Position numbers and translations under genes: made by a program. Shown here piece by piece: positions 37-40,933 of a DNA stretch of 42,329 bases. Source of the stretch: a virus; UHGV virus genome UHGV-1357302. One strand, written 5' to 3'. Each line of letters opens with the position of its first letter. Position 1 is the first letter of the stretch. The notes below the pieces were generated by a model, which worked only from the letters and a program-made list of their open reading frames with translations, was not told the origin of the DNA and made no database searches.

Positions 37-567
37 ATGGCTAATGAAGCAAAGGTAGCGGCTAAAGGTATTGATATTATTTTACTTTTCCGTTTGCTAA
101 AAAAATCAAAAGAGGAAGCAGCATGGAAATTAGCTTTCCAGACAGAACATGAAAATACAAAAACAAAAGATAGTGACTCCGTGGCCACTAAAGATGGTCC
201 GATTCGTATCCCAGGATCATTGGAAATTGATTTTTCAGCAACATCTATTTTATCAGTCGGTGATCCGTATGTTGATCAACTAGAAGAAGCTTTAGACAAT
301 GACGATATTATTGAAATTTGGGAAATCAACAAAGCAGAAAAAGGCACAGGAGATAATGCTGACAAATACAAGGCAACCTATTACCAAGGATATGTAACAT
401 CATTTGGTAAATCGCCTAATGCTGAAGACACCGTAGAAGTTTCATTAGAATTTGGTATCAATGGTAAAGGTGCAAAAGGATTTGCAACATTAACTGCTGA
501 TCAAGAAGAAGTAGTTCAATATGTCTTCAAAGATACGACTATTGAAACAGCTGATCCGGGAAAGTAG
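37..567 (+). CDS. phage major tail protein (zero-frame product)
   Basis: 176-aa ORF with GAAGGA RBS 7 nt upstream of the ATG. It sits directly after the head-tail joining genes (by wrap-around) and before the Ig-like ORF, the G/GT chaperone pair and the tape measure, which is the canonical siphovirus position. Composition is typical of phi13/TP901-1-type major tail proteins (recall, not searched). Confidence 0.7.
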   Translation: MANEAKVAAKGIDIILLFRLLKKSKEEAAWKLAFQTEHENTKTKDSDSVATKDGPIRIPGSLEIDFSATSILSVGDPYVDQLEEALDNDDIIEIWEINKAEKGTGDNADKYKATYYQGYVTSFGKSPNAEDTVEVSLEFGINGKGAKGFATLTADQEEVVQYVFKDTTIETADPGK

Positions 568-629
568 ATAGCCCTTCTGTGGGAAGTGTAACTCCTACAG
601 TCGATGGGGCTTCTATTGAATTAAGCTAA
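558..629 (+). other. putative -1 programmed frameshift site (G GGA AAG, 558-564) plus 21-codon -1-frame extension (564-629) of the major tail protein
   Basis: The slippery X XXY YYZ heptamer spans the last two sense codons (GGA AAG) just before the TAG stop at 565-567. The -1 frame then reads VDSPSVGSVTPTVDGASIELS and stops at TAA 627-629. The extension is paralogous to the one after the major capsid gene at 40868-40933. Confidence 0.45.
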
Positions 630-644
630 GAAAGGAAAATAAAT

Positions 645-1103
645 ATGGTGAATACTTTTAAAATTTATAAAGGCCAAACCGAAGTTGTTTCCGGCACATC
701 ACCTTTAACTATAACAGGAATGGAACCTAACACCTCTGTGCCAGTTGGTGAGTACCAAGTAACTCGTGTTGTTAATGGGAAAGAATCAGAGCGAGTAGAT
801 ATTCCAGCTTTTAAAACATTGTCTATTGCTGTAACTGGCTTAGAGTTTTCTCCTAAAACATCAACAGCAGATGCGGGTACTGCAGGTAGCCGACAAATCA
901 CAGCAACTGTCTTGCCTGAAAATGCAACCAACAAAAAAGTAACCTATAAGATTACGCCTGAAACAGAAGGTCTTGCTGTCTCTGAAACAGGAAATATTAC
1001 TTGGACAGAAGCGGTACCGGCTGGTGTTTATACTACAACAGGAACAACAGAGGAAGGTAAAAAAACAGCTCAACACACCTTAACATTGAATAATCAAGCT
1101 TAA
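645..1103 (+). CDS. Ig-like (Big_2-type) domain protein, probable tail or capsid decoration
   Basis: 152 aa with its own RBS (AAAGGAAAATAAATATG). The segment ITATVLPENATNKKVTYKITPE...GNITWTEAVPAG fits the bacterial Ig-like group 2 consensus. It lies in the same frame as the major-tail -1 extension, separated from it by a single TAA. Confidence 0.6.
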   Translation: MVNTFKIYKGQTEVVSGTSPLTITGMEPNTSVPVGEYQVTRVVNGKESERVDIPAFKTLSIAVTGLEFSPKTSTADAGTAGSRQITATVLPENATNKKVTYKITPETEGLAVSETGNITWTEAVPAGVYTTTGTTEEGKKTAQHTLTLNNQA

Positions 1104-1158: not shown

Positions 1159-1509
1159 ATGCAAATCGAAATTAAAGGAAAAAAATATAACTGTATTTTT
1201 GGAGTCAAGTTTATTCGTGAATTGGATAAGCAGCATGGGGTAGTTCGCAATGATGTAAATCTTGGGATGGGACTAACAACATTATTACCGCAGCTAGTAA
1301 GTGGAAATATCGTTGTTTTATCTGATGTACTCTACACAGCTACCATTACGGAAAAAAGTAGACCTTCTAAGGATGAAGTAGATGAGTTCGTTGAAACTGT
1401 GGATGATATTGAGGCATTATTTGATGAAACGTTGAAATACTTAGAAGAAAGCAATGCGGGAAAGTTAACGGTCAGAAATTTCAAGAAAGCTCTGATGGAG
1501 AACAAGTAA
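1159..1509 (+). CDS. tail assembly chaperone (gpG-like)
   Basis: 116-aa ORF between the major tail protein and the tape measure, with RBS GGAGGAAAAGGCATG. It contains the slippery heptamer G GGA AAG at 1458-1464. Confidence 0.6.
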   Translation: MQIEIKGKKYNCIFGVKFIRELDKQHGVVRNDVNLGMGLTTLLPQLVSGNIVVLSDVLYTATITEKSRPSKDEVDEFVETVDDIEALFDETLKYLEESNAGKLTVRNFKKALMENK

Positions 1510-1871: not shown

Positions 1872-4800
1872 ATGATGGAACAATATTCAGTAGAAGCAAT
1901 ACTTATTGCCACTGATAAAACGTTTAGTAGCACGATGAGTAGCGCTGAGCGTTCAATGGTTGGTGTAAACAAACAATCTGGTGAACTAGGTGATGGACTG
2001 GATAAAAGTACCACTAAAGGTAATCAATTGGGTAAGTCAATTCTTAGTATTGGAGCAGGCGTGGGCGCTGTAAAATTAGTATCTACGGCCGTAAATATGG
2101 TTAAGGACTCTGTTGAAGGAGCGATTAACCGTTTTGATACGTTGAATAAATATCCTGTAGTTATGAAAGCTCTAGGTTACTCAACAGAAGATGTAGATAG
2201 ATCAATGACTAAGTTAAGTGATGGGATTGATGGGCTTCCTACATCGTTAGATGAAATCGTATCAAATACGCAACAGTTAGCAATTTCAACTGGTAGCTTG
2301 AGTAAAGGAACTGACACAGCTATTGCATTAAATGATGCCTTTCTTGCTTCTGGAGCTTCAACTGCTGATGCAACTCGTGGTATGCAACAATATATTCAAA
2401 TGCTCGGTAAGGGTGAAGTTGATATGCAGTCTTGGCGAACATTACAAGAAACAATGCCGATTGCGATGGATAAAGTTGCTAAGTCTTTCAAAGAACAAGG
2501 TGTAAACTCAGTTAACCAATTATATGATGCCTTAAAAGAAGGAGATATTACATTTAATGAGTTCAATAATCGTTTGATTGAATTGGATAAAGGTGTAGGC
2601 GGTTTTGCGGACCTAGCAAAGAAAAACTCAAAGGGTATCAAAACATCATGGGCAAATATTAAAACAGCCACCGTTAAAGGTGTAACTACAGTAATTAAAT
2701 CATTTGATGAACTATCCAAAGCAGTGACAGGAAAAAACATTGCCGAAAATTTAGATTCTTTAAAAAATGTAGTGAATATAACTTTTAAGGCAATCGATGC
2801 AGCGATTCAATCAACTATTCCATTGATGAAACTATTCGGAAAAGCTATTACGTCGGTAGGTACAGCCTTAACACCATTACTGCCAACAATTGCCAGTTTT
2901 GCTGCCACTTTTACAGCATTGAAAGTAATTCAGCAAGTGACAGGTTATATAAAACAATCTGAATTGGCAATCAAAGCTTATACAACCGCAATAAGTTTAT
3001 ACAATGGAATATCAAAACTGGCAACGTTGTCTACCACAGCACTCGGAAGAGCATGGATGTTAAACTTAGCAGCCGATAAAGCCAATTCTGCAGCAATAGC
3101 AATAAAAACTGGTCTTTTAGTGGCGCAAAATACAATCGTTGGTGTTTTGACAGGAACAATTAGTTTAGCTACAGTAGCTACAACTGTTTTTAGTACCGCT
3201 ATGAAATTGTTGATGGGCCCTATTGGTTGGGTAACAGCTGCAATAGGAGGACTAGTAGCTGTAGGGGTAAACTTGTGGAAATGGTTAAATAAGGAAACTG
3301 AATCAACTAAGGCAGTTAAAAAAGAACAAGAAAACCTTATGAAAACCACAGATGACTTGATTAAAAAGAATCAAGAACATGCACAATCCCGAAAAGATGA
3401 AGCTATTGAGTTAGAAAATACTAAAGAAAAATATAATTCAATGATTTCTGAAATGGCAACGCTCGCTGCCAAAGAGAAATTAAGTAACGGCGAGAAAAAA
3501 CGTATGACAGAAATTGTTGAAGAGTTGAACGGTAAAATGACAGGTTTAAACTTAGTTTACGATGAACAAAGTAATAAACTTTCTGAAATGCCAGGTAAAA
3601 TTCAACAACAAATGGACGCATATAGCGCATTAGATAAAGCTTCAAAAGCACAAGAAGATATCAATAAGATGTTGCAGCAAAGAAATGATAATGAAGCAAA
3701 ATTAATGGAAATCAATGCAGCTAGGGAAAAATGGAATCAGACATTAAAAGAATCTGGCGGGAATACAAAAGAAGCCCGTGAAAATATAGCTGAATTAGGT
3801 GAACAAGAAAAAGTTCTAATGGGCGTTCAAGAAGATTTGAGAAATGATATTATAAATACTGCAAAAACACATGAATCTGCAATGCAAACAGCTAGTCAAG
3901 CTGTAGCAAATGGAGTTTTAGAGCAGACGGTTTCTTACAATGCGTTAAGTGGTAAAACAAAAGAGACTATGGATGCTATGCGTGCTGAATACACTTCTCT
4001 TGAAACAAAAGTGGGTAGCGCCTTTGATGTTATTGAGCAAAAGCAGGCTATTTCAGTTGATCAGATGGCTGCTAACTTACAGAAGAACCAAGAAGCTGTT
4101 GCACAGTGGGGACAAAATATTTCAACTCTTGCAGAACGACATGTTGACCAGGGGTTATTGGAACAACTTAGAAAAATGGGTCCAGAGGGTGCAGCACAAG
4201 CAGCAGAGCTTGTTAATGCATCAGATGAACAATTACAACGCTTAAATGATGTTTATCGTAATACAGGCGAAACTTCCATGAACGCAATGAAAGAAGGTTA
4301 CCAGTTAGGTAAAAATGGTGTTAATGAGGAAATAGCAAGCTTAATCCCAACACAAAAAGATACATTAATGACACAGATTAAAAATACAAATTTTAACGAT
4401 ATTGGTAGAAGTGTTACTGAAGACTTTAAAGCAGGAATTGAGAATGGTAGAAATGCAGTAGCAGAAATGACCAAAGGAATTGTTCCACAAATGGGAACCG
4501 ATATGAAAGGTGAAGTTGAAAAAGCTAATTTCCCTGATATAGGTAAAGCTATCCCTCAAGGTCTAGAGAAAGGTATTGGAGCTAATAAACAATTACCTGT
4601 AAAAACATCTAATCAAATGATTGATGATGTTGTTTCTGGTGCCAGAAAAGGTTTAGATTCTCACTCTCCTTCTCGTGTATTTCACTCAATTGGTGAAGAT
4701 GTTGATTCTGGATTATCAAACGGTATCGAACAAAACGCAATGAATCCAGTAAGAGCTGTTGAGTCTATTGTTGATAAAATAATTTCTGCAATGGATAAAT

Positions 4801-5282
4801 TGCCATCAGAAATGAATTCTATCGGAGCAAATGCAATTGATGGATTGACTAATGGTATTAATGCCAATGCGAATAGTGCTTTAGCTGCAGCAAGAGGTGT
4901 GGCAGATCAAATTGTAAGTACAATGAAAAGTGCTATGGATATTCATTCTCCATCACGTGTAATGCGTGATGAAGTAGGTAAAATGATTCCAGCAGGAGTA
5001 GCGGTTGGTATTGATAAATATTCAAACTTTGTGGAAAAATCTATGCAACGACTAAGTAAAAAAGTAGCCATGCCAGCGCTGGATAATTTAAATTCAAATC
5101 TGTCATTTAGTGGAGGATCACAAAGCTTAGCATTTGCTGGAGATGTATCTTCAAAATTGACTGTAGAGGTACCTGTTATTTTCGATAGTTCAGAGGTTGC
5201 AAGGGTTATTGCTAAACCAATGAGTAAAGAATTGCAGAATCAACAAGATAAAAAGAATGTTTCTTTAGGAAGGAGGCGCTAA
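1872..5282 (+). CDS. tail tape measure protein
   Basis: 1136 aa with RBS GGAAAGGAGGAAAATG. It has long coiled-coil and Ala/Gly-rich segments, a central hydrophobic block (about residues 300-470), C-terminal duplicated HSPSRV motifs, and the standard position after the G/GT chaperones. Confidence 0.9.
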   Translation: MMEQYSVEAILIATDKTFSSTMSSAERSMVGVNKQSGELGDGLDKSTTKGNQLGKSILSIGAGVGAVKLVSTAVNMVKDSVEGAINRFDTLNKYPVVMKALGYSTEDVDRSMTKLSDGIDGLPTSLDEIVSNTQQLAISTGSLSKGTDTAIALNDAFLASGASTADATRGMQQYIQMLGKGEVDMQSWRTLQETMPIAMDKVAKSFKEQGVNSVNQLYDALKEGDITFNEFNNRLIELDKGVGGFADLAKKNSKGIKTSWANIKTATVKGVTTVIKSFDELSKAVTGKNIAENLDSLKNVVNITFKAIDAAIQSTIPLMKLFGKAITSVGTALTPLLPTIASFAATFTALKVIQQVTGYIKQSELAIKAYTTAISLYNGISKLATLSTTALGRAWMLNLAADKANSAAIAIKTGLLVAQNTIVGVLTGTISLATVATTVFSTAMKLLMGPIGWVTAAIGGLVAVGVNLWKWLNKETESTKAVKKEQENLMKTTDDLIKKNQEHAQSRKDEAIELENTKEKYNSMISEMATLAAKEKLSNGEKKRMTEIVEELNGKMTGLNLVYDEQSNKLSEMPGKIQQQMDAYSALDKASKAQEDINKMLQQRNDNEAKLMEINAAREKWNQTLKESGGNTKEARENIAELGEQEKVLMGVQEDLRNDIINTAKTHESAMQTASQAVANGVLEQTVSYNALSGKTKETMDAMRAEYTSLETKVGSAFDVIEQKQAISVDQMAANLQKNQEAVAQWGQNISTLAERHVDQGLLEQLRKMGPEGAAQAAELVNASDEQLQRLNDVYRNTGETSMNAMKEGYQLGKNGVNEEIASLIPTQKDTLMTQIKNTNFNDIGRSVTEDFKAGIENGRNAVAEMTKGIVPQMGTDMKGEVEKANFPDIGKAIPQGLEKGIGANKQLPVKTSNQMIDDVVSGARKGLDSHSPSRVFHSIGEDVDSGLSNGIEQNAMNPVRAVESIVDKIISAMDKLPSEMNSIGANAIDGLTNGINANANSALAAARGVADQIVSTMKSAMDIHSPSRVMRDEVGKMIPAGVAVGIDKYSNFVEKSMQRLSKKVAMPALDNLNSNLSFSGGSQSLAFAGDVSSKLTVEVPVIFDSSEVARVIAKPMSKELQNQQDKKNVSLGRRR

Positions 5283-8247: not shown

Positions 8248-8421
8248 ATGAGATTAACAGTAAAACTAATTAGCAAACAAGAAGAATTTATAATTAATGA
8301 TGAATCAGGTAAAACATTAGATGATTATTTTGCAGAACTAATTGATAATAGTTCGCCATTCATCAAGATAGGAAATCGTATTTTACAAAAAGCCACGATT
8401 GAATACATTAATGCAGAATAG
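8248..8421 (+). CDS. small hypothetical protein (57 aa)
   Basis: ATG overlaps the preceding stop (TAAATG) and an AGGAGG lies 9 nt upstream. Sequence is MRLTVKLISKQEEFIINDESGKT... It is not in the supplied ORF track because it is under 60 aa. Confidence 0.4.
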   Translation: MRLTVKLISKQEEFIINDESGKTLDDYFAELIDNSSPFIKIGNRILQKATIEYINAE

Positions 8422-8432
8422 GAGTGATAAAC

Positions 8433-10391
8433 ATGGCTATCGAGCAAATTAAAGAAACCGACACACTGAATCAAGGTCGAATTAAAATTAATGCGATTTT
8501 GGATCAATCAAATGCTTCATCTGAAAAAGTAGATGCGTATCAAGAAGAATTAAAAAACGGCGTTGATGATGCGAAGAAAATAGCTGATACCGCTGGTAAA
8601 GAGGCAATCAAAGTTGCTGAAGAAGCAGGAGCTCAAGCAAATGCAACGGCGAACCAAGCGATGGATAATGCTAATACGGCAATTACGATTGCAGGAAATG
8701 CAGTTTCAACGGCAAATAATAATAAACAAGAATTCGATGCTCTAAGAAATGATTTTGACAAGTTGGTCGGTGAAGCAGGTGATAGTAACCCTGAAATCGT
8801 ACAAGCTAGAACAGATACTCAAGGAGTAACGCAACCGACATTAGCGACTCGATTACTGGTTGATTTTAACGATCGTATGACTAAATCGGAAGGTGTATCA
8901 TTATTGTCAGGAACAACAAATGTAAAAATTTCTATGGATTTTTCTGGGAAAACGGCAGGTAATACAGCAACTAATGCGCATCAATATTTTACGGATGTAA
9001 CTGCTAAATCGCTAAAAAAACCAAAAGATATATGGAATGAAGTTTCTCAAGCAGAATACAATAAATTAGTAAGCCGTGATGATTCTGGAGTAAGTAGTGG
9101 TTCAACACAAACTGGAGTTATCCCACAACAGTTAGGTTCATTCAATGCTTTAGAAGCTGCAAAAAAATTAATTCCTCAAATTTTCGAAGGATTAAATCAA
9201 GAAGAAGCGGTATCTTTATTAAAAGATAGCTTTGTAGCGTTCACTATTAGCGAACGTGCTAAAGCAACTTCGCCAAACAACAAAACAATTAAAGTTTCTA
9301 CTTACATTGAGTCAACAGATTCATGGGCAACTCAAATCCAAGAAAGCGCTGGAGAGTATAAAGATATATCAGCGCAAATAACAGACAAAAATTTCATTAC
9401 TAGCGAAGGGGTTATATATCTAATTAATTATACAGATCCATCGAATGGAGTAACAACAGCTAATTTAGATATAGACTATTCAGCTATTCAATTAGAAATT
9501 AGTGTTAATGTTCAAGACGTTTTAGAAAAAAGTGGGTTTGTTAAATCAAAACAATTAAATGATCATGTAGACGATAAAGAAAATCCACATCAAGTGACAG
9601 CTGAGCAAGTGGGAGCATATAGCAAGACTGATTCTACTGATCTATTTATTAACAAAACTGAAGCAGAAAATGGATTGTTTGTTGCTAAAAAAACAGTTGT
9701 TAACTCGCAAGATTGGGATAAAATTCTAGATGCAGGTATTTACACCGTTTTTGGAGCTTCTGGAGCAAACAGACCTTATTCGGGTGCAGCTTATGGTGCT
9801 TTAGTTGTTTATGCTGATAATACATTTGTAAGTCAAACGTATATGTATAAAGGTGAAACATACACCCGTAGTCGTCAAGGCAGTCCAGCGACTTGGACAC
9901 CATGGAATAAAATGCTTGTGGAAAAAGAACAACCTTTTGAAGCTTGGTATTCACCAGGAACTAATCATCCTGGATTCAAAAATAAGGCAAGATACAATTT
10001 AGGGCCAGAATTTAGCAACGTAGGCCAGCGACTGGGGTTACCTATGAAAAGCAATCCATTAGAATGGAATAGTGGACGGTGGCAAGCAAAAGTGCTTAGA
10101 GACTGCAAGCTAAATGTAAGCGGAACTGTAAAATATCAAGTTGGCGGTTCGAGAGGAGTTCTATATGCTTATACTCATATTGACAAAGGACTTGATGAAG
10201 GTGTAGGTGACTTAGGTATTGGATCAGCAGTCGGAGCTGTTGGCGGTTTGAATTATCAAAATGTCGCAGCCTTTGACTTAAACGTCACACTAAAAAAAGG
10301 CGAGTATTTTGCGTTTCGTTTAGAATTAGCAGCAGATAAGCAACTTGATAATACGCAACTTTCTTCTATGCATATTACAGAATTAGTATAG
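8433..10391 (+). CDS. tail fibre / receptor-binding (upper baseplate-like) protein
   Basis: 652 aa from the ATG at 8433 (RBS AGGAGTGA; the track's earlier start is a GTG). The N-terminus is Ala/Asn-rich coiled coil and the C-terminus is a divergent globular domain. It is the last structural gene before the holin. Confidence 0.55.
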   Translation: MAIEQIKETDTLNQGRIKINAILDQSNASSEKVDAYQEELKNGVDDAKKIADTAGKEAIKVAEEAGAQANATANQAMDNANTAITIAGNAVSTANNNKQEFDALRNDFDKLVGEAGDSNPEIVQARTDTQGVTQPTLATRLLVDFNDRMTKSEGVSLLSGTTNVKISMDFSGKTAGNTATNAHQYFTDVTAKSLKKPKDIWNEVSQAEYNKLVSRDDSGVSSGSTQTGVIPQQLGSFNALEAAKKLIPQIFEGLNQEEAVSLLKDSFVAFTISERAKATSPNNKTIKVSTYIESTDSWATQIQESAGEYKDISAQITDKNFITSEGVIYLINYTDPSNGVTTANLDIDYSAIQLEISVNVQDVLEKSGFVKSKQLNDHVDDKENPHQVTAEQVGAYSKTDSTDLFINKTEAENGLFVAKKTVVNSQDWDKILDAGIYTVFGASGANRPYSGAAYGALVVYADNTFVSQTYMYKGETYTRSRQGSPATWTPWNKMLVEKEQPFEAWYSPGTNHPGFKNKARYNLGPEFSNVGQRLGLPMKSNPLEWNSGRWQAKVLRDCKLNVSGTVKYQVGGSRGVLYAYTHIDKGLDEGVGDLGIGSAVGAVGGLNYQNVAAFDLNVTLKKGEYFAFRLELAADKQLDNTQLSSMHITELV

Positions 10392-39857: not shown

Positions 39858-40871
39858 ATGGCAAATATTGCAGAATTATTTTCACAGAAAAATGTATTAG
39901 ATTATGTAAATAATCGTCAAGCACCAGTTTTATTAGGAGAAACATTGTTTCCAGCACGTAAGGTACAGGGGTTAGAGTTTGATGTTTTAAAAGCGGGATC
40001 TAAAATCCCAACAATTGCAAGCGTTCATGCGTTCGATACAGAAGCTGAGATTGCTTCACGTGTTGGATCGAAAACAGCTCAAGAGTTAGCGTTCATCAAA
40101 CGTAAAATTCAATTAAAAGAAAAAGATTTAATGGCCTTACGCAAGCCTCGTGATGCAGCAGAACAACGTTTCTTAGAACAAGAAGTGTACAACGATGTAG
40201 ATGCAATGGTTGGATCTGTAAATGCGCGTGTTGAAAAGATGCGAATGGAAGTATTAGCAAATGGAACAGTTACATTAGACGAAAATGGTTTAGATTTAGT
40301 AGTTGATTACGGCGTACCAAAAGAACATCAAGCTACAGCTGACTTTACTGCACCTGAAACAGATGTTATTGGGCTATTGACTGAATGGGCAAGCGCTTTG
40401 GATACTACGCCTACTCGTATCTTAACATCTACAAAAGTACGCAACGCGATTCTTCAAAACACTGGGATTAAAGCATATTTTAAAGATGCAGGATTATTGC
40501 CAACAATCGGCTCTTTAAATCAAATGTTCCAACAGTTTGGATTGCCAACGCTTGTAACTTATGATGCGAAATACAACAAAGAAAATGAAAAGGGCGTATT
40601 AGTAAAAGAACGTTATTTCCCAGAAAACAAGCTAGTCATGTTTGGTGATGAAAACCCAGGAGAGTCTATTTTCGGTGTAACACCAGAAGAATCTCGTTTG
40701 TTATCAACTGGATCAAATAACTACACAGTAGGCAATATTTTCGCAATGGTATACGAATCTAATTTAGACCCAGTTGGAACATGGACTAAAGCATCAGGAA
40801 CAGCTCTACCAAGTTTCCCAGAAGCTGACAATGTATTCCAAGCTACTGTCTTACCTGATTCAAAAAAATAG
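39858..40871 (+). CDS. major capsid protein (zero-frame product)
   Basis: 337 aa with RBS AGGAGGATTTCAAATG, following the scaffold. Ends in ...LPDSKK with the A7 run before TAG. Confidence 0.8.
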   Translation: MANIAELFSQKNVLDYVNNRQAPVLLGETLFPARKVQGLEFDVLKAGSKIPTIASVHAFDTEAEIASRVGSKTAQELAFIKRKIQLKEKDLMALRKPRDAAEQRFLEQEVYNDVDAMVGSVNARVEKMRMEVLANGTVTLDENGLDLVVDYGVPKEHQATADFTAPETDVIGLLTEWASALDTTPTRILTSTKVRNAILQNTGIKAYFKDAGLLPTIGSLNQMFQQFGLPTLVTYDAKYNKENEKGVLVKERYFPENKLVMFGDENPGESIFGVTPEESRLLSTGSNNYTVGNIFAMVYESNLDPVGTWTKASGTALPSFPEADNVFQATVLPDSKK

Positions 40872-40933
40872 AAGCCCCGAAAGTTGAAAGTGTAACACCA
40901 ACAACTGACGGGGCCTCAATCGTATTAAGTTAG
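40862..40933 (+). other. putative -1 programmed frameshift site (A AAA AAA, 40862-40868) plus 21-codon -1-frame extension (40868-40933) of the major capsid protein
   Basis: The -1 frame reads IEAPKVESVTPTTDGASIVLS then stops at TAG 40931-33. It is paralogous to the tail-protein extension (SVTPT(V/T)DGASI(E/V)LS), and most nucleotide differences are synonymous in this frame. Confidence 0.45.

Follow-up and report, generated by a model that had tools for sequence, protein, structure and literature searches.

The question raised by this locus is why a phage should end both of its major structural genes in a shift-prone site and encode nearly the same short peptide out of frame behind each of them. 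The stretch analysed, referred to as the window, is the 42,329-nucleotide (nt) DNA of virus genome UHGV-1357302, which corresponds approximately to the whole genome of a temperate Enterococcus faecalis siphophage. The element under study is the 3' end of its major tail (tube) protein gene, where the slippery heptamer G GGA AAG adjoins the stop codon and a 21-codon extension, termed here the tag, is open in the -1 frame, with a paralogous tag following the major capsid protein gene. Comparative analysis makes it highly probable that the tag is expressed by recoding, and, by a reading that is probable to a lesser degree, the tail extension (564-626) would serve as a docking tag, its 21 residues standing for strands A-B of a fibronectin type III (FN3) domain.

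The major tail protein gene (37-567, plus strand) encodes 176 amino acids in the zero frame up to the stop codon TAG at 565-567, its product matching Pfam Phage_tail_2 with an E value of 7.4e-18 and having homologues annotated as major tail protein in phages EFC-1, IME197 and phiEf11. The gene ends in GAT CCG GGA AAG TAG, with GGA and AAG as zero-frame codons, and these together with the preceding G form the heptamer at 558-564 (plus strand) in the X XXY YYZ register. From 564 the -1 frame reads GTA GAT AGC and continues as VDSPSVGSVTPTVDGASIELS over 21 translated codons (564-626, plus strand) to TAA at 627-629, giving the predicted junction ...TADPGK-VDSPSVGSVTPTVDGASIELS, and the +1 frame is shut immediately at AGA TAG (566-571). 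The major capsid protein gene (39858-40871, plus strand, 337 amino acids), a homologue of phiEf11 ORF10, ends in TCA AAA AAA TAG, with the heptamer A AAA AAA at 40862-40868 (plus strand). Its -1-frame extension, IEAPKVESVTPTTDGASIVLS (40868-40930, plus strand, TAG at 40931-40933), is identical to the tail tag at 14 of 21 residues, 9 of the 14 shared residues being encoded by different codons. Both sites therefore present X XXY YYZ in the zero-frame register that characterises canonical -1 frameshifting, and a heptamer adjoins the stop codon in only two of the 41 plus-strand open reading frames (ORFs) of at least 80 amino acids, namely the capsid and tail genes. Taken singly, 21 open codons in the -1 frame are unremarkable; two such stretches encoding the same peptide are remarkable. 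The tail heptamer also recurs exactly 900 nt downstream, in frame in the chaperone gene at the canonical tail-chaperone G/GT frameshift site (1458-1464, plus strand), with the -1 frame staying open over 131 codons. The preliminary description had already drawn attention to the abutting heptamer, the 21-codon extension, the immediate closure of the +1 frame, the recurrence at the G/GT site and the near-identical peptide in the same relative frame after the capsid gene, and the coordinates and translations given here bear out each of these readings.

Related loci were collected through the product of the next gene (645-1103), yielding 80 IMG/VR loci and 17 prophage or genome loci from Enterococcus, Oceanobacillus, Virgibacillus, Bacillus, Siminovitchia, Alkalicoccobacillus, Atopostipes and Staphylococcus, and tags were searched for with a small hidden Markov model (HMM) built from the tags. 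Wherever both gene ends are present, each locus carries two tags, one after a capsid-sized ORF and one after a tail-tube-sized ORF, as is the case in all of approximately 70 loci (17 genome and approximately 53 IMG/VR loci), the few apparently tag-less exceptions having tags just below the HMM threshold. The peptide has a fixed length and follows the pattern ..P.V..VTPTTDGA.I.L., and the routes of access to it are diverse. Access in the -1 frame occurs at G GGA AAG, G GGA AAC or G GGA AAA followed by a stop codon, at G GGG GAG followed by a stop codon, at A AAA AAA, and at CCA AAA GCG TAG; access in the +1 frame occurs at CCC TAA or CCC AGY in Staphylococcus prophages and in loci L021 and L074; and in-frame access is rare, being confined to three loci. 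The commonest site in the relatives is G GGG GAG followed by a stop codon (L005-L017 and many IMG/VR loci; for example, L005 4902-4916). That a peptide of fixed length and pattern is retained while the shift signal is swapped argues strongly for its production.

Selection on the tag frame leads in the same direction. Comparison of the tail tag with the capsid tag gives proportions of synonymous (pS) and non-synonymous (pN) differences of 0.65 and 0.22, a ratio of 0.35 in the tag frame against approximately 1.7 in the other two frames, and the tag-frame ratio ranges from 0.35 to 0.59, with values above 1 in the other frames. The three codon positions show diversities of 0.37/0.32/0.58 across 62 distinct tag DNAs from the relatives, and stop codons interrupt the remaining two frames in 62/62 and 61/62, respectively. 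The trans-frame ORF is accordingly conserved and under purifying selection, as is expected of -1 frameshift sites. The junction that requires a frameshift is identical in at least 11 independent contigs, on which ground sequencing error or a private mutation was rejected.

Natural in-frame variants display the predicted product directly. In phiEf11 and L043 the junction reads GAT CCA GAA AAA GTA GAT AGC, placing the tag in frame in a tail protein of 197 amino acids, and in L032 a separate 1-nt insertion (GAT CAC GGG AAA GTA) likewise brings the tag in frame, so that both variants show the predicted ...K-VDSP... junction. Full tagging of the tail tube is viable, because the tag is in frame in phiEf11/L043 and L032. 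The insertion sites lie at L003 2055-2070 (phiEf11) and L032 approximately 4905-4925, with the downstream hairpin kept in both. At the protein level, the phiEf11 major head protein appears as two virion bands of 41 and 38 kDa, approximately 3 kDa apart (Stevens et al. 2016, PMC5221750), and the same authors proposed a -1 slip on AAAAAAA of ORF10 giving 21 extra residues (PMC5221750). The capsid half of the present finding is therefore already proposed for phiEf11 since 2016. No frameshift was reported in the phiEf11 tail gene (Stevens et al. 2016, PMC5221750), because the tag is already in frame there.

The regions downstream of the two heptamers are predicted to fold. At the tail site, a hairpin spanning 563-617 (plus strand), with a core stem of 570-575/606-611 and an inner stem of 577-584/593-600, has a folding energy of -22.3 to -24.8 kcal/mol (z -2.7 to -3.1), and at the capsid site a hairpin at 40871-40917 (plus strand) reaches -21.5 kcal/mol (z -2.7). 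The G+C-rich core stems begin 5-6 nt after the heptamer at both sites, within the spacing of approximately 5-9 nt at which stimulatory RNA structures lie downstream of -1 sites, and the check proposed in the preliminary description for such a structure thus returns a predicted one. No comparable downstream structure is predicted at the G/GT site 1458-1464 (z -0.95). The tail hairpin is kept in all variants of the lineage, at -19.5 to -25.1 kcal/mol. Its core pairs join the Pro-4 codon CCC with the Gly-15 codon GGG and are invariant in 21 -1-type tags, for which RNAalifold recovers three invariant C-G pairs only, and the inner stem pairs the V-x-G codons (Val6-Gly7) with the P-T-T codons (Pro11-Thr12-Thr13). 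In the named 14-bp structure, pairing amounts to 65%, compared with 33-49% for slid partners; the structure shows 18 double changes, and 0/500 shuffles attain it. The hairpin arms (577-600 and 570-611) coincide with the codons of the conserved residues of the tag, superimposing RNA and peptide constraints. The hairpin is counted as compatible with a stimulator and not as proof of one, because the same bases encode conserved residues. Taken with selection on the tag frame, the in-frame relatives and conservation over approximately 70 loci, the predicted hairpin lends support to the earlier proposal that a -1 slip would yield a minor, C-terminally tagged form of the tail protein. That the slip happens in this phage, and at what rate, we infer.

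The candidate partner of the tag is encoded immediately downstream. A separate gene (645-1103, plus strand) with its own ribosome-binding site (RBS), GAAAGGA at 630-636, encodes a 152-amino-acid protein in which residues 1-58 (645-818) correspond to an FN3 domain without strands A-B and residues approximately 62-144 to a Big_2 Ig-like domain. Approximately 120 close homologues all start at the same point, M(x0-6)FKIYKG, and vary after the approximately 58-residue N-domain, carrying Big_2, He_PIG, two Ig domains, G5 or almost nothing. What stays constant among these homologues is the N-domain, and in L009, L016, L017, L018 and L020 (gene at approximately 5001) the protein is 89-118 amino acids long, a truncated FN3 with little or no cargo. 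By itself, the N-domain exceeds the Pfam fn3 threshold in two relatives, P0034 and L074, aligning to profile positions 32-83 of 84. In P0034, the score rises from 29.2 bits (32-83) to 35.9 bits (2-83) when the cognate tag is prepended, a gain of 6.7 bits, against 30.0 bits (positions 30-83) with the reversed tag, which leaves the match unextended; in L074 it rises from 34.5 bits (32-83) to 49.3 bits (2-83), a gain of 14.8 bits. The capsid genes of both relatives end in ACT CCC TAA and carry the +1 tags PNKPGNVKASATDTTVKLEWD and KKPVNLKASDTTETSITLTWD, respectively. At the sequence level, these two relatives suggest that the tag supplies the missing strands A-B.

Structural evidence is consistent with such a division of the fold. 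The E-F signature (spltitGLepnTdY) is what links the combined profile of tag and N-domain to fibronectin FN3 domains in the PDB, and a PDB sequence search with ORF 645-1103 returned Big_2 domains only. AlphaFold models the 645-1103 product with a predicted local distance difference test (pLDDT) score of 95.3 over the full length. Strand E of a complete FN3 domain has strand B as its partner. The most conserved segment of the N-domain, SPLTITG (FN3 strand E; SPLxITG in the family), has no strand partner in the isolated models, and the modelled N-domain fits an FN3 fold with strands C-G only. Every tag extension consists of 21 amino acids ending at the stop codon and covers approximately fn3 profile positions 2-30 only, and the split would accordingly fall in the B-C loop, the tag ending just after strand B and the next protein beginning just before strand C. 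The preliminary description had likened the tag itself to frameshift-appended Ig-like decorations; for that it is too short, and a two-strand FN3 fragment describes it better.

Two other ways of joining the tag to the next protein were rejected. A shared frame in the window and a stop codon where the FN3 Trp is expected would suggest readthrough from the tag into ORF 645-1103 or a fusion of the two, but the relative frames vary among loci and each homologue has its own RBS and start. A covalent isopeptide bond between tag and catcher was rejected for want of an invariant reactive residue; in many tags the best conserved acidic position (D14) carries N, S, G or T instead. The band of phiEf11 ORF15, the tail protein that has the tag in frame, lies at 28 kDa, above the 21.5 kDa predicted (Stevens et al. 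2016, PMC5221750), and does not fit a covalent adduct (37 kDa) with the 16-kDa Ig-like protein.

In the mechanism proposed, a fraction of ribosomes would slip by -1 on G GGA AAG as they decode the final two sense codons of the tail tube gene, assisted by the hairpin 5-6 nt downstream and possibly by the adjoining stop codon. The slip may proceed by tandem slippage of tRNA-Gly and tRNA-Lys, or by P-site tRNA-Lys moving from AAG to AAA with the stop codon in the A site, both routes giving one and the same product. Slipped ribosomes would add the 21 codons behind ...TADPGK, with the capsid gene behaving likewise on A AAA AAA. Acting in trans, through fragment or strand complementation, the tag would then complete the truncated FN3 domain with which the 645-1103 product begins, and one Ig-like decoration protein would dock on the tagged subset of capsid and tail-tube subunits. 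Frameshift efficiency would set the dose of the displayed Big_2 domain, sub-stoichiometric on head and tail. Binding of the tag to the N-domain, the stoichiometry and an adhesive role of the displayed Ig-like domain we infer from the arrangement described, and it is held to be reasonably likely that the tag serves to dock one Ig-like decoration protein in a dose set by frameshifting.

Several observations weigh against this reading. The site used most often in the family, G GGG GAG, does not belong to the classical tandem-slippage heptamers, and mass spectrometry of phiEf11 virions gave no extension peptide, not even that of the capsid protein (Stevens et al. 2016, PMC5221750). The covariation of the hairpin is confounded by peptide constraint, the core pairs being Pro and Gly codons, and the similarity of tags within a genome was tested in a way that takes no account of phylogeny. 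Pfam fn3 is not detected in the N-domain of the window itself, with or without the tag, and the combined profile of tag and N-domain aligns to PDB FN3 domains over the N-domain only and not over the tag. AlphaFold (AF2), finally, folds the N-domain confidently without the tag (pLDDT 91.7 for residues 1-61), and the domain may be stable alone. In a Pfam search of the window tag joined to its N-domain, only weak RGI_lyase and PDZ_Tricorn noise was returned. As to the family site, G GGG GAG is a run of five G and not X XXY YYZ, the A-site tRNA-Glu being unable to re-pair in the -1 frame, and its mechanism may be P-site slippage on GGG.

Among the alternatives, the one that survives best accepts a frameshift-made tag that works alone or with another partner, for example by beta-augmentation between neighbouring capsid or tail subunits or as an assembly or regulatory signal, without docking the 645-1103 product. 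The confident folding of the truncated N-domain by itself agrees with this, as does the tagging of every tail subunit in phiEf11, where full occupancy is tolerated and in itself gives no indication of a binder. The distribution of tags speaks otherwise, with tags found in every locus that has the truncated FN3 domain and in 0/26 IMG/VR loci matching the Big_2 part only. The truncated-domain gene follows the tail gene in Enterococcus phages and L015-17, and the capsid gene in L005-14, L018-21 and many IMG/VR contigs, and both structural genes are tagged whichever of the two it follows. Moreover, the tag completes the fn3 match exactly where the N-domain match begins in P0034 and L074, and the two tags of one genome co-vary, capsid and tail tags showing 0.55 identity within a genome against 0.43 across genomes (permutation p approximately 1e-4). 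An independent role for the tag is accordingly judged unlikely, and docking on the truncated FN3 domain is preferred.

Transcriptional slippage, in which RNA polymerase adds a base in an A or G run, would yield the same extended proteins and is considered improbable. The capsid site consists of seven consecutive A, A7 or G5 runs stand in place of classical heptamers in several relatives, and an inserted base reproduces the natural in-frame variants, all of which such slippage would accommodate. Polymerases are prone to slip on runs of 7 or more, and the runs of three in GGGAAAG are too short for efficient slippage. GGGAAAG is, in addition, a proven ribosomal shift motif in G/GT genes, the hairpins at 5-6 nt spacing fit a ribosomal stimulator, and the +1 relatives (CCC TAA) would be left unexplained. 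The least probable alternative, that a 1-nt deletion from a phiEf11-like ancestor truncated the tail protein and left an unexpressed relic whose 63 nt persist through recency or another role of the RNA hairpin, draws on the one-base difference at the junction from the in-frame phiEf11 gene and on a 95% identity to phiEf11 that allows little time for decay, but was rejected on conservation and on selection for the tag frame, the out-of-frame arrangement with a shift-prone site being the rule in approximately 70 diverged loci against three in-frame ones, selection acting on the peptide and not on RNA alone, the deletion having to create a perfect in-register heptamer identical to that of the G/GT site, and a consensus scan finding no terminator-like site in the tail-tag region.

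The arrangement of a recoded tag on both structural proteins has a close parallel in Listeria phages, in which frameshifting of cps and tsh was reportedly described by Zimmer in 2003 and Dorscht in 2009. Phages A118, A500 and PSA use 3'-terminal programmed frameshifting in these two genes (summarised in Atkins 2016, PMC5009743). As proposed for the window, recoding at the 3' end of each major structural gene yields a longer form of the protein beside the normal one, the site lies at or almost at the stop codon (A118 cps, G GGA AAC TAA), and -1 and +1 routes are interchangeable. The Listeria extensions are unlike those of the window, Cps-L carrying a HeH/SAP-like segment of 45-50 amino acids and Tsh-L adding a whole Big_2 domain (A118) or a 24-amino-acid acidic tail (PSA), whereas in the window one 21-amino-acid peptide is placed on both proteins. 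The tag HMM has zero matches in the A118, A500 and PSA genomes, and homology of the tag to their extensions was rejected. The analogy drawn in the preliminary description hence stands for arrangement and mechanism and fails for the extensions themselves, and the window, although it has shift sites at both 3' ends, is placed by sequence outside the A118/A500/PSA family. The HeH/SAP-like capsid extensions read MTVAELKEELAN in A118 (L025 6060-6240) and MKVVELKEELDKRGI in PSA (L027 5130-5290), the former running into annotated ORF7 after the site G GGA AAC TAA.

With phiEf11 ORF10 the window shares an orthologous capsid site, the same heptamer, the 21-residue extension and a downstream stem-loop, and in the paper on that phage the identity of the two extensions as one peptide and the relation to the next gene are unremarked (PMC5221750). 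The G/GT -1 frameshift of the same phage uses the identical tail heptamer and yields a fixed minor fraction of longer product, and it differs from the tag in that its site is internal to the gene and adds approximately 131 amino acids of a chaperone absent from the virion.

Ig-like domains appended by frameshifting to coat and tail proteins of phages are said to have been described by Fraser et al. in 2006. Examples comprise the FN3 domain of SPP1 gp17.1* and the T3 and A2 coat proteins (reviewed in PMC5009743). There, as proposed here, recoding doses the display of an Ig-superfamily domain on a subset of subunits, and access in the -1 or +1 frame or in frame is apparently immaterial. The window tag is distinct in lacking a complete appended Ig-like, FN3 or Big_2 domain of the class attributed to Fraser et al.; only two strands (21 amino acids) are covalent, what remains of the FN3 domain forming a separate chain with the Ig-like cargo, and attachment would be non-covalent, with one cargo gene serving head and tail.

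Completion of an incomplete domain by the strand or strands of another chain is familiar from engineered FN3 fragment complementation, SpyTag/SpyCatcher and chaperone-usher donor-strand complementation. The present arrangement resembles these systems in its short tag, larger catcher and a sandwich completed by another chain, and differs from them in being natural and viral, with a tag made by recoding and two strands donated. The invariant reactive Asp/Asn-Lys pair with catalytic Glu that marks SpyTag/SpyCatcher was not found here.

Split-FN3 junctions are also seen in Staphylococcus phage GH15 (NC_019448, L024), where three consecutive genes at 8341-9749 are chained through such junctions without a frameshift. 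An in-frame tag is followed there by a truncated-FN3 gene two times in succession, which favours the docking reading. The C-terminus of ORF148, ...PSAPKNVQVTPKEDGADVSAE, is tag-like; ORF149 starts with LAKLNLYKGNELL...STITIENLDANTDY (strands C-G), followed by a Big_2 domain and a terminal tag ...PEAPTDVTVEPGENSADITA; and ORF150 (75 amino acids) consists of strands C-G only. Residues 2-175 of ORF148 correspond to a solved chain (9rox/9roz, 'Putative Ig-like protein') that ends before the linker and tag. No tags were found after the capsid, sheath or tube genes of Kayvirus GH15, the in-frame tags lying elsewhere in its genome.

The first 3 kb of the window are 96% identical to EFC-1, 95.8% to IME197 and 94.8% to phiEf11, and the order at the window start is major tail protein, Big_2-domain protein, chaperones G/GT and tape measure, with the capsid gene at the opposite end. 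The chaperone G gene spans 1159-1509 (Phage_TAC_12, plus strand), the -1 frame for GT being open at 1464-1859, and the tape measure protein gene lies at 1872-5282. The stop codon of the tail tag precedes the ATG of 645-1103 by 15 nt, beside its RBS, and termination-reinitiation coupling between the two is conceivable. Directly 3' of ORF 645-1103, at approximately 1117-1145, a hairpin followed by a T run (gagggcagcttagcggctgtccttttctt) resembles an intrinsic terminator separating the tail-tube block from the chaperone genes, and the consensus terminator scan left it unflagged. The structural modules are mosaic, the 337-amino-acid capsid protein with its A AAA AAA site being common to the window and phiEf11. 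In EFC-1 and IME197 (L001, L002 and L004 compared), the tail module is nearly that of the window and the capsid protein is a different one of 310 amino acids, its gene ending in GCG GGG GAG TAA with a tag of its own, GGVTSPVVGKVTPTTNGATIELT.

In the searchable literature, which was incompletely covered, no description was found of a split FN3 domain or a tag shared by capsid and tail, of the tail half in EFC-1-type phages, or of the identity of the two tags or their tie to the next gene. Slightly favoured on balance is a natural tag-and-catcher system widespread in Bacillota phages, in which recoding (-1, +1 or none) appends the A-B strands. On this reading, a single C-G-strand protein with variable Ig-like cargo would dock on both structural proteins by fragment complementation, its occupancy would follow from frameshift efficiency, and the split-FN3 junction would serve again in Staphylococcus Kayvirus to chain ORF148, ORF149 and ORF150 of GH15. 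If true, the docking of one decoration protein through a split FN3 domain would explain why capsid and tail genes are both recoded with the same very short extension, and would answer a puzzle open since the two-band observation in phiEf11. It would show a route into the virion for the free-standing Ig-like 'tail protein' that is usually mis-annotated as a second major tail protein, and would provide an annotation rule, approximately 21 out-of-frame codons after capsid and tail genes together with a gene starting M..FKIYKG. The small peptide and its partner would form a pair attractive for phage display and for the engineering of Enterococcus, Listeria, Staphylococcus and Bacillus phages, and the system would amount to a naturally occurring split-domain docking device dosed through translation.

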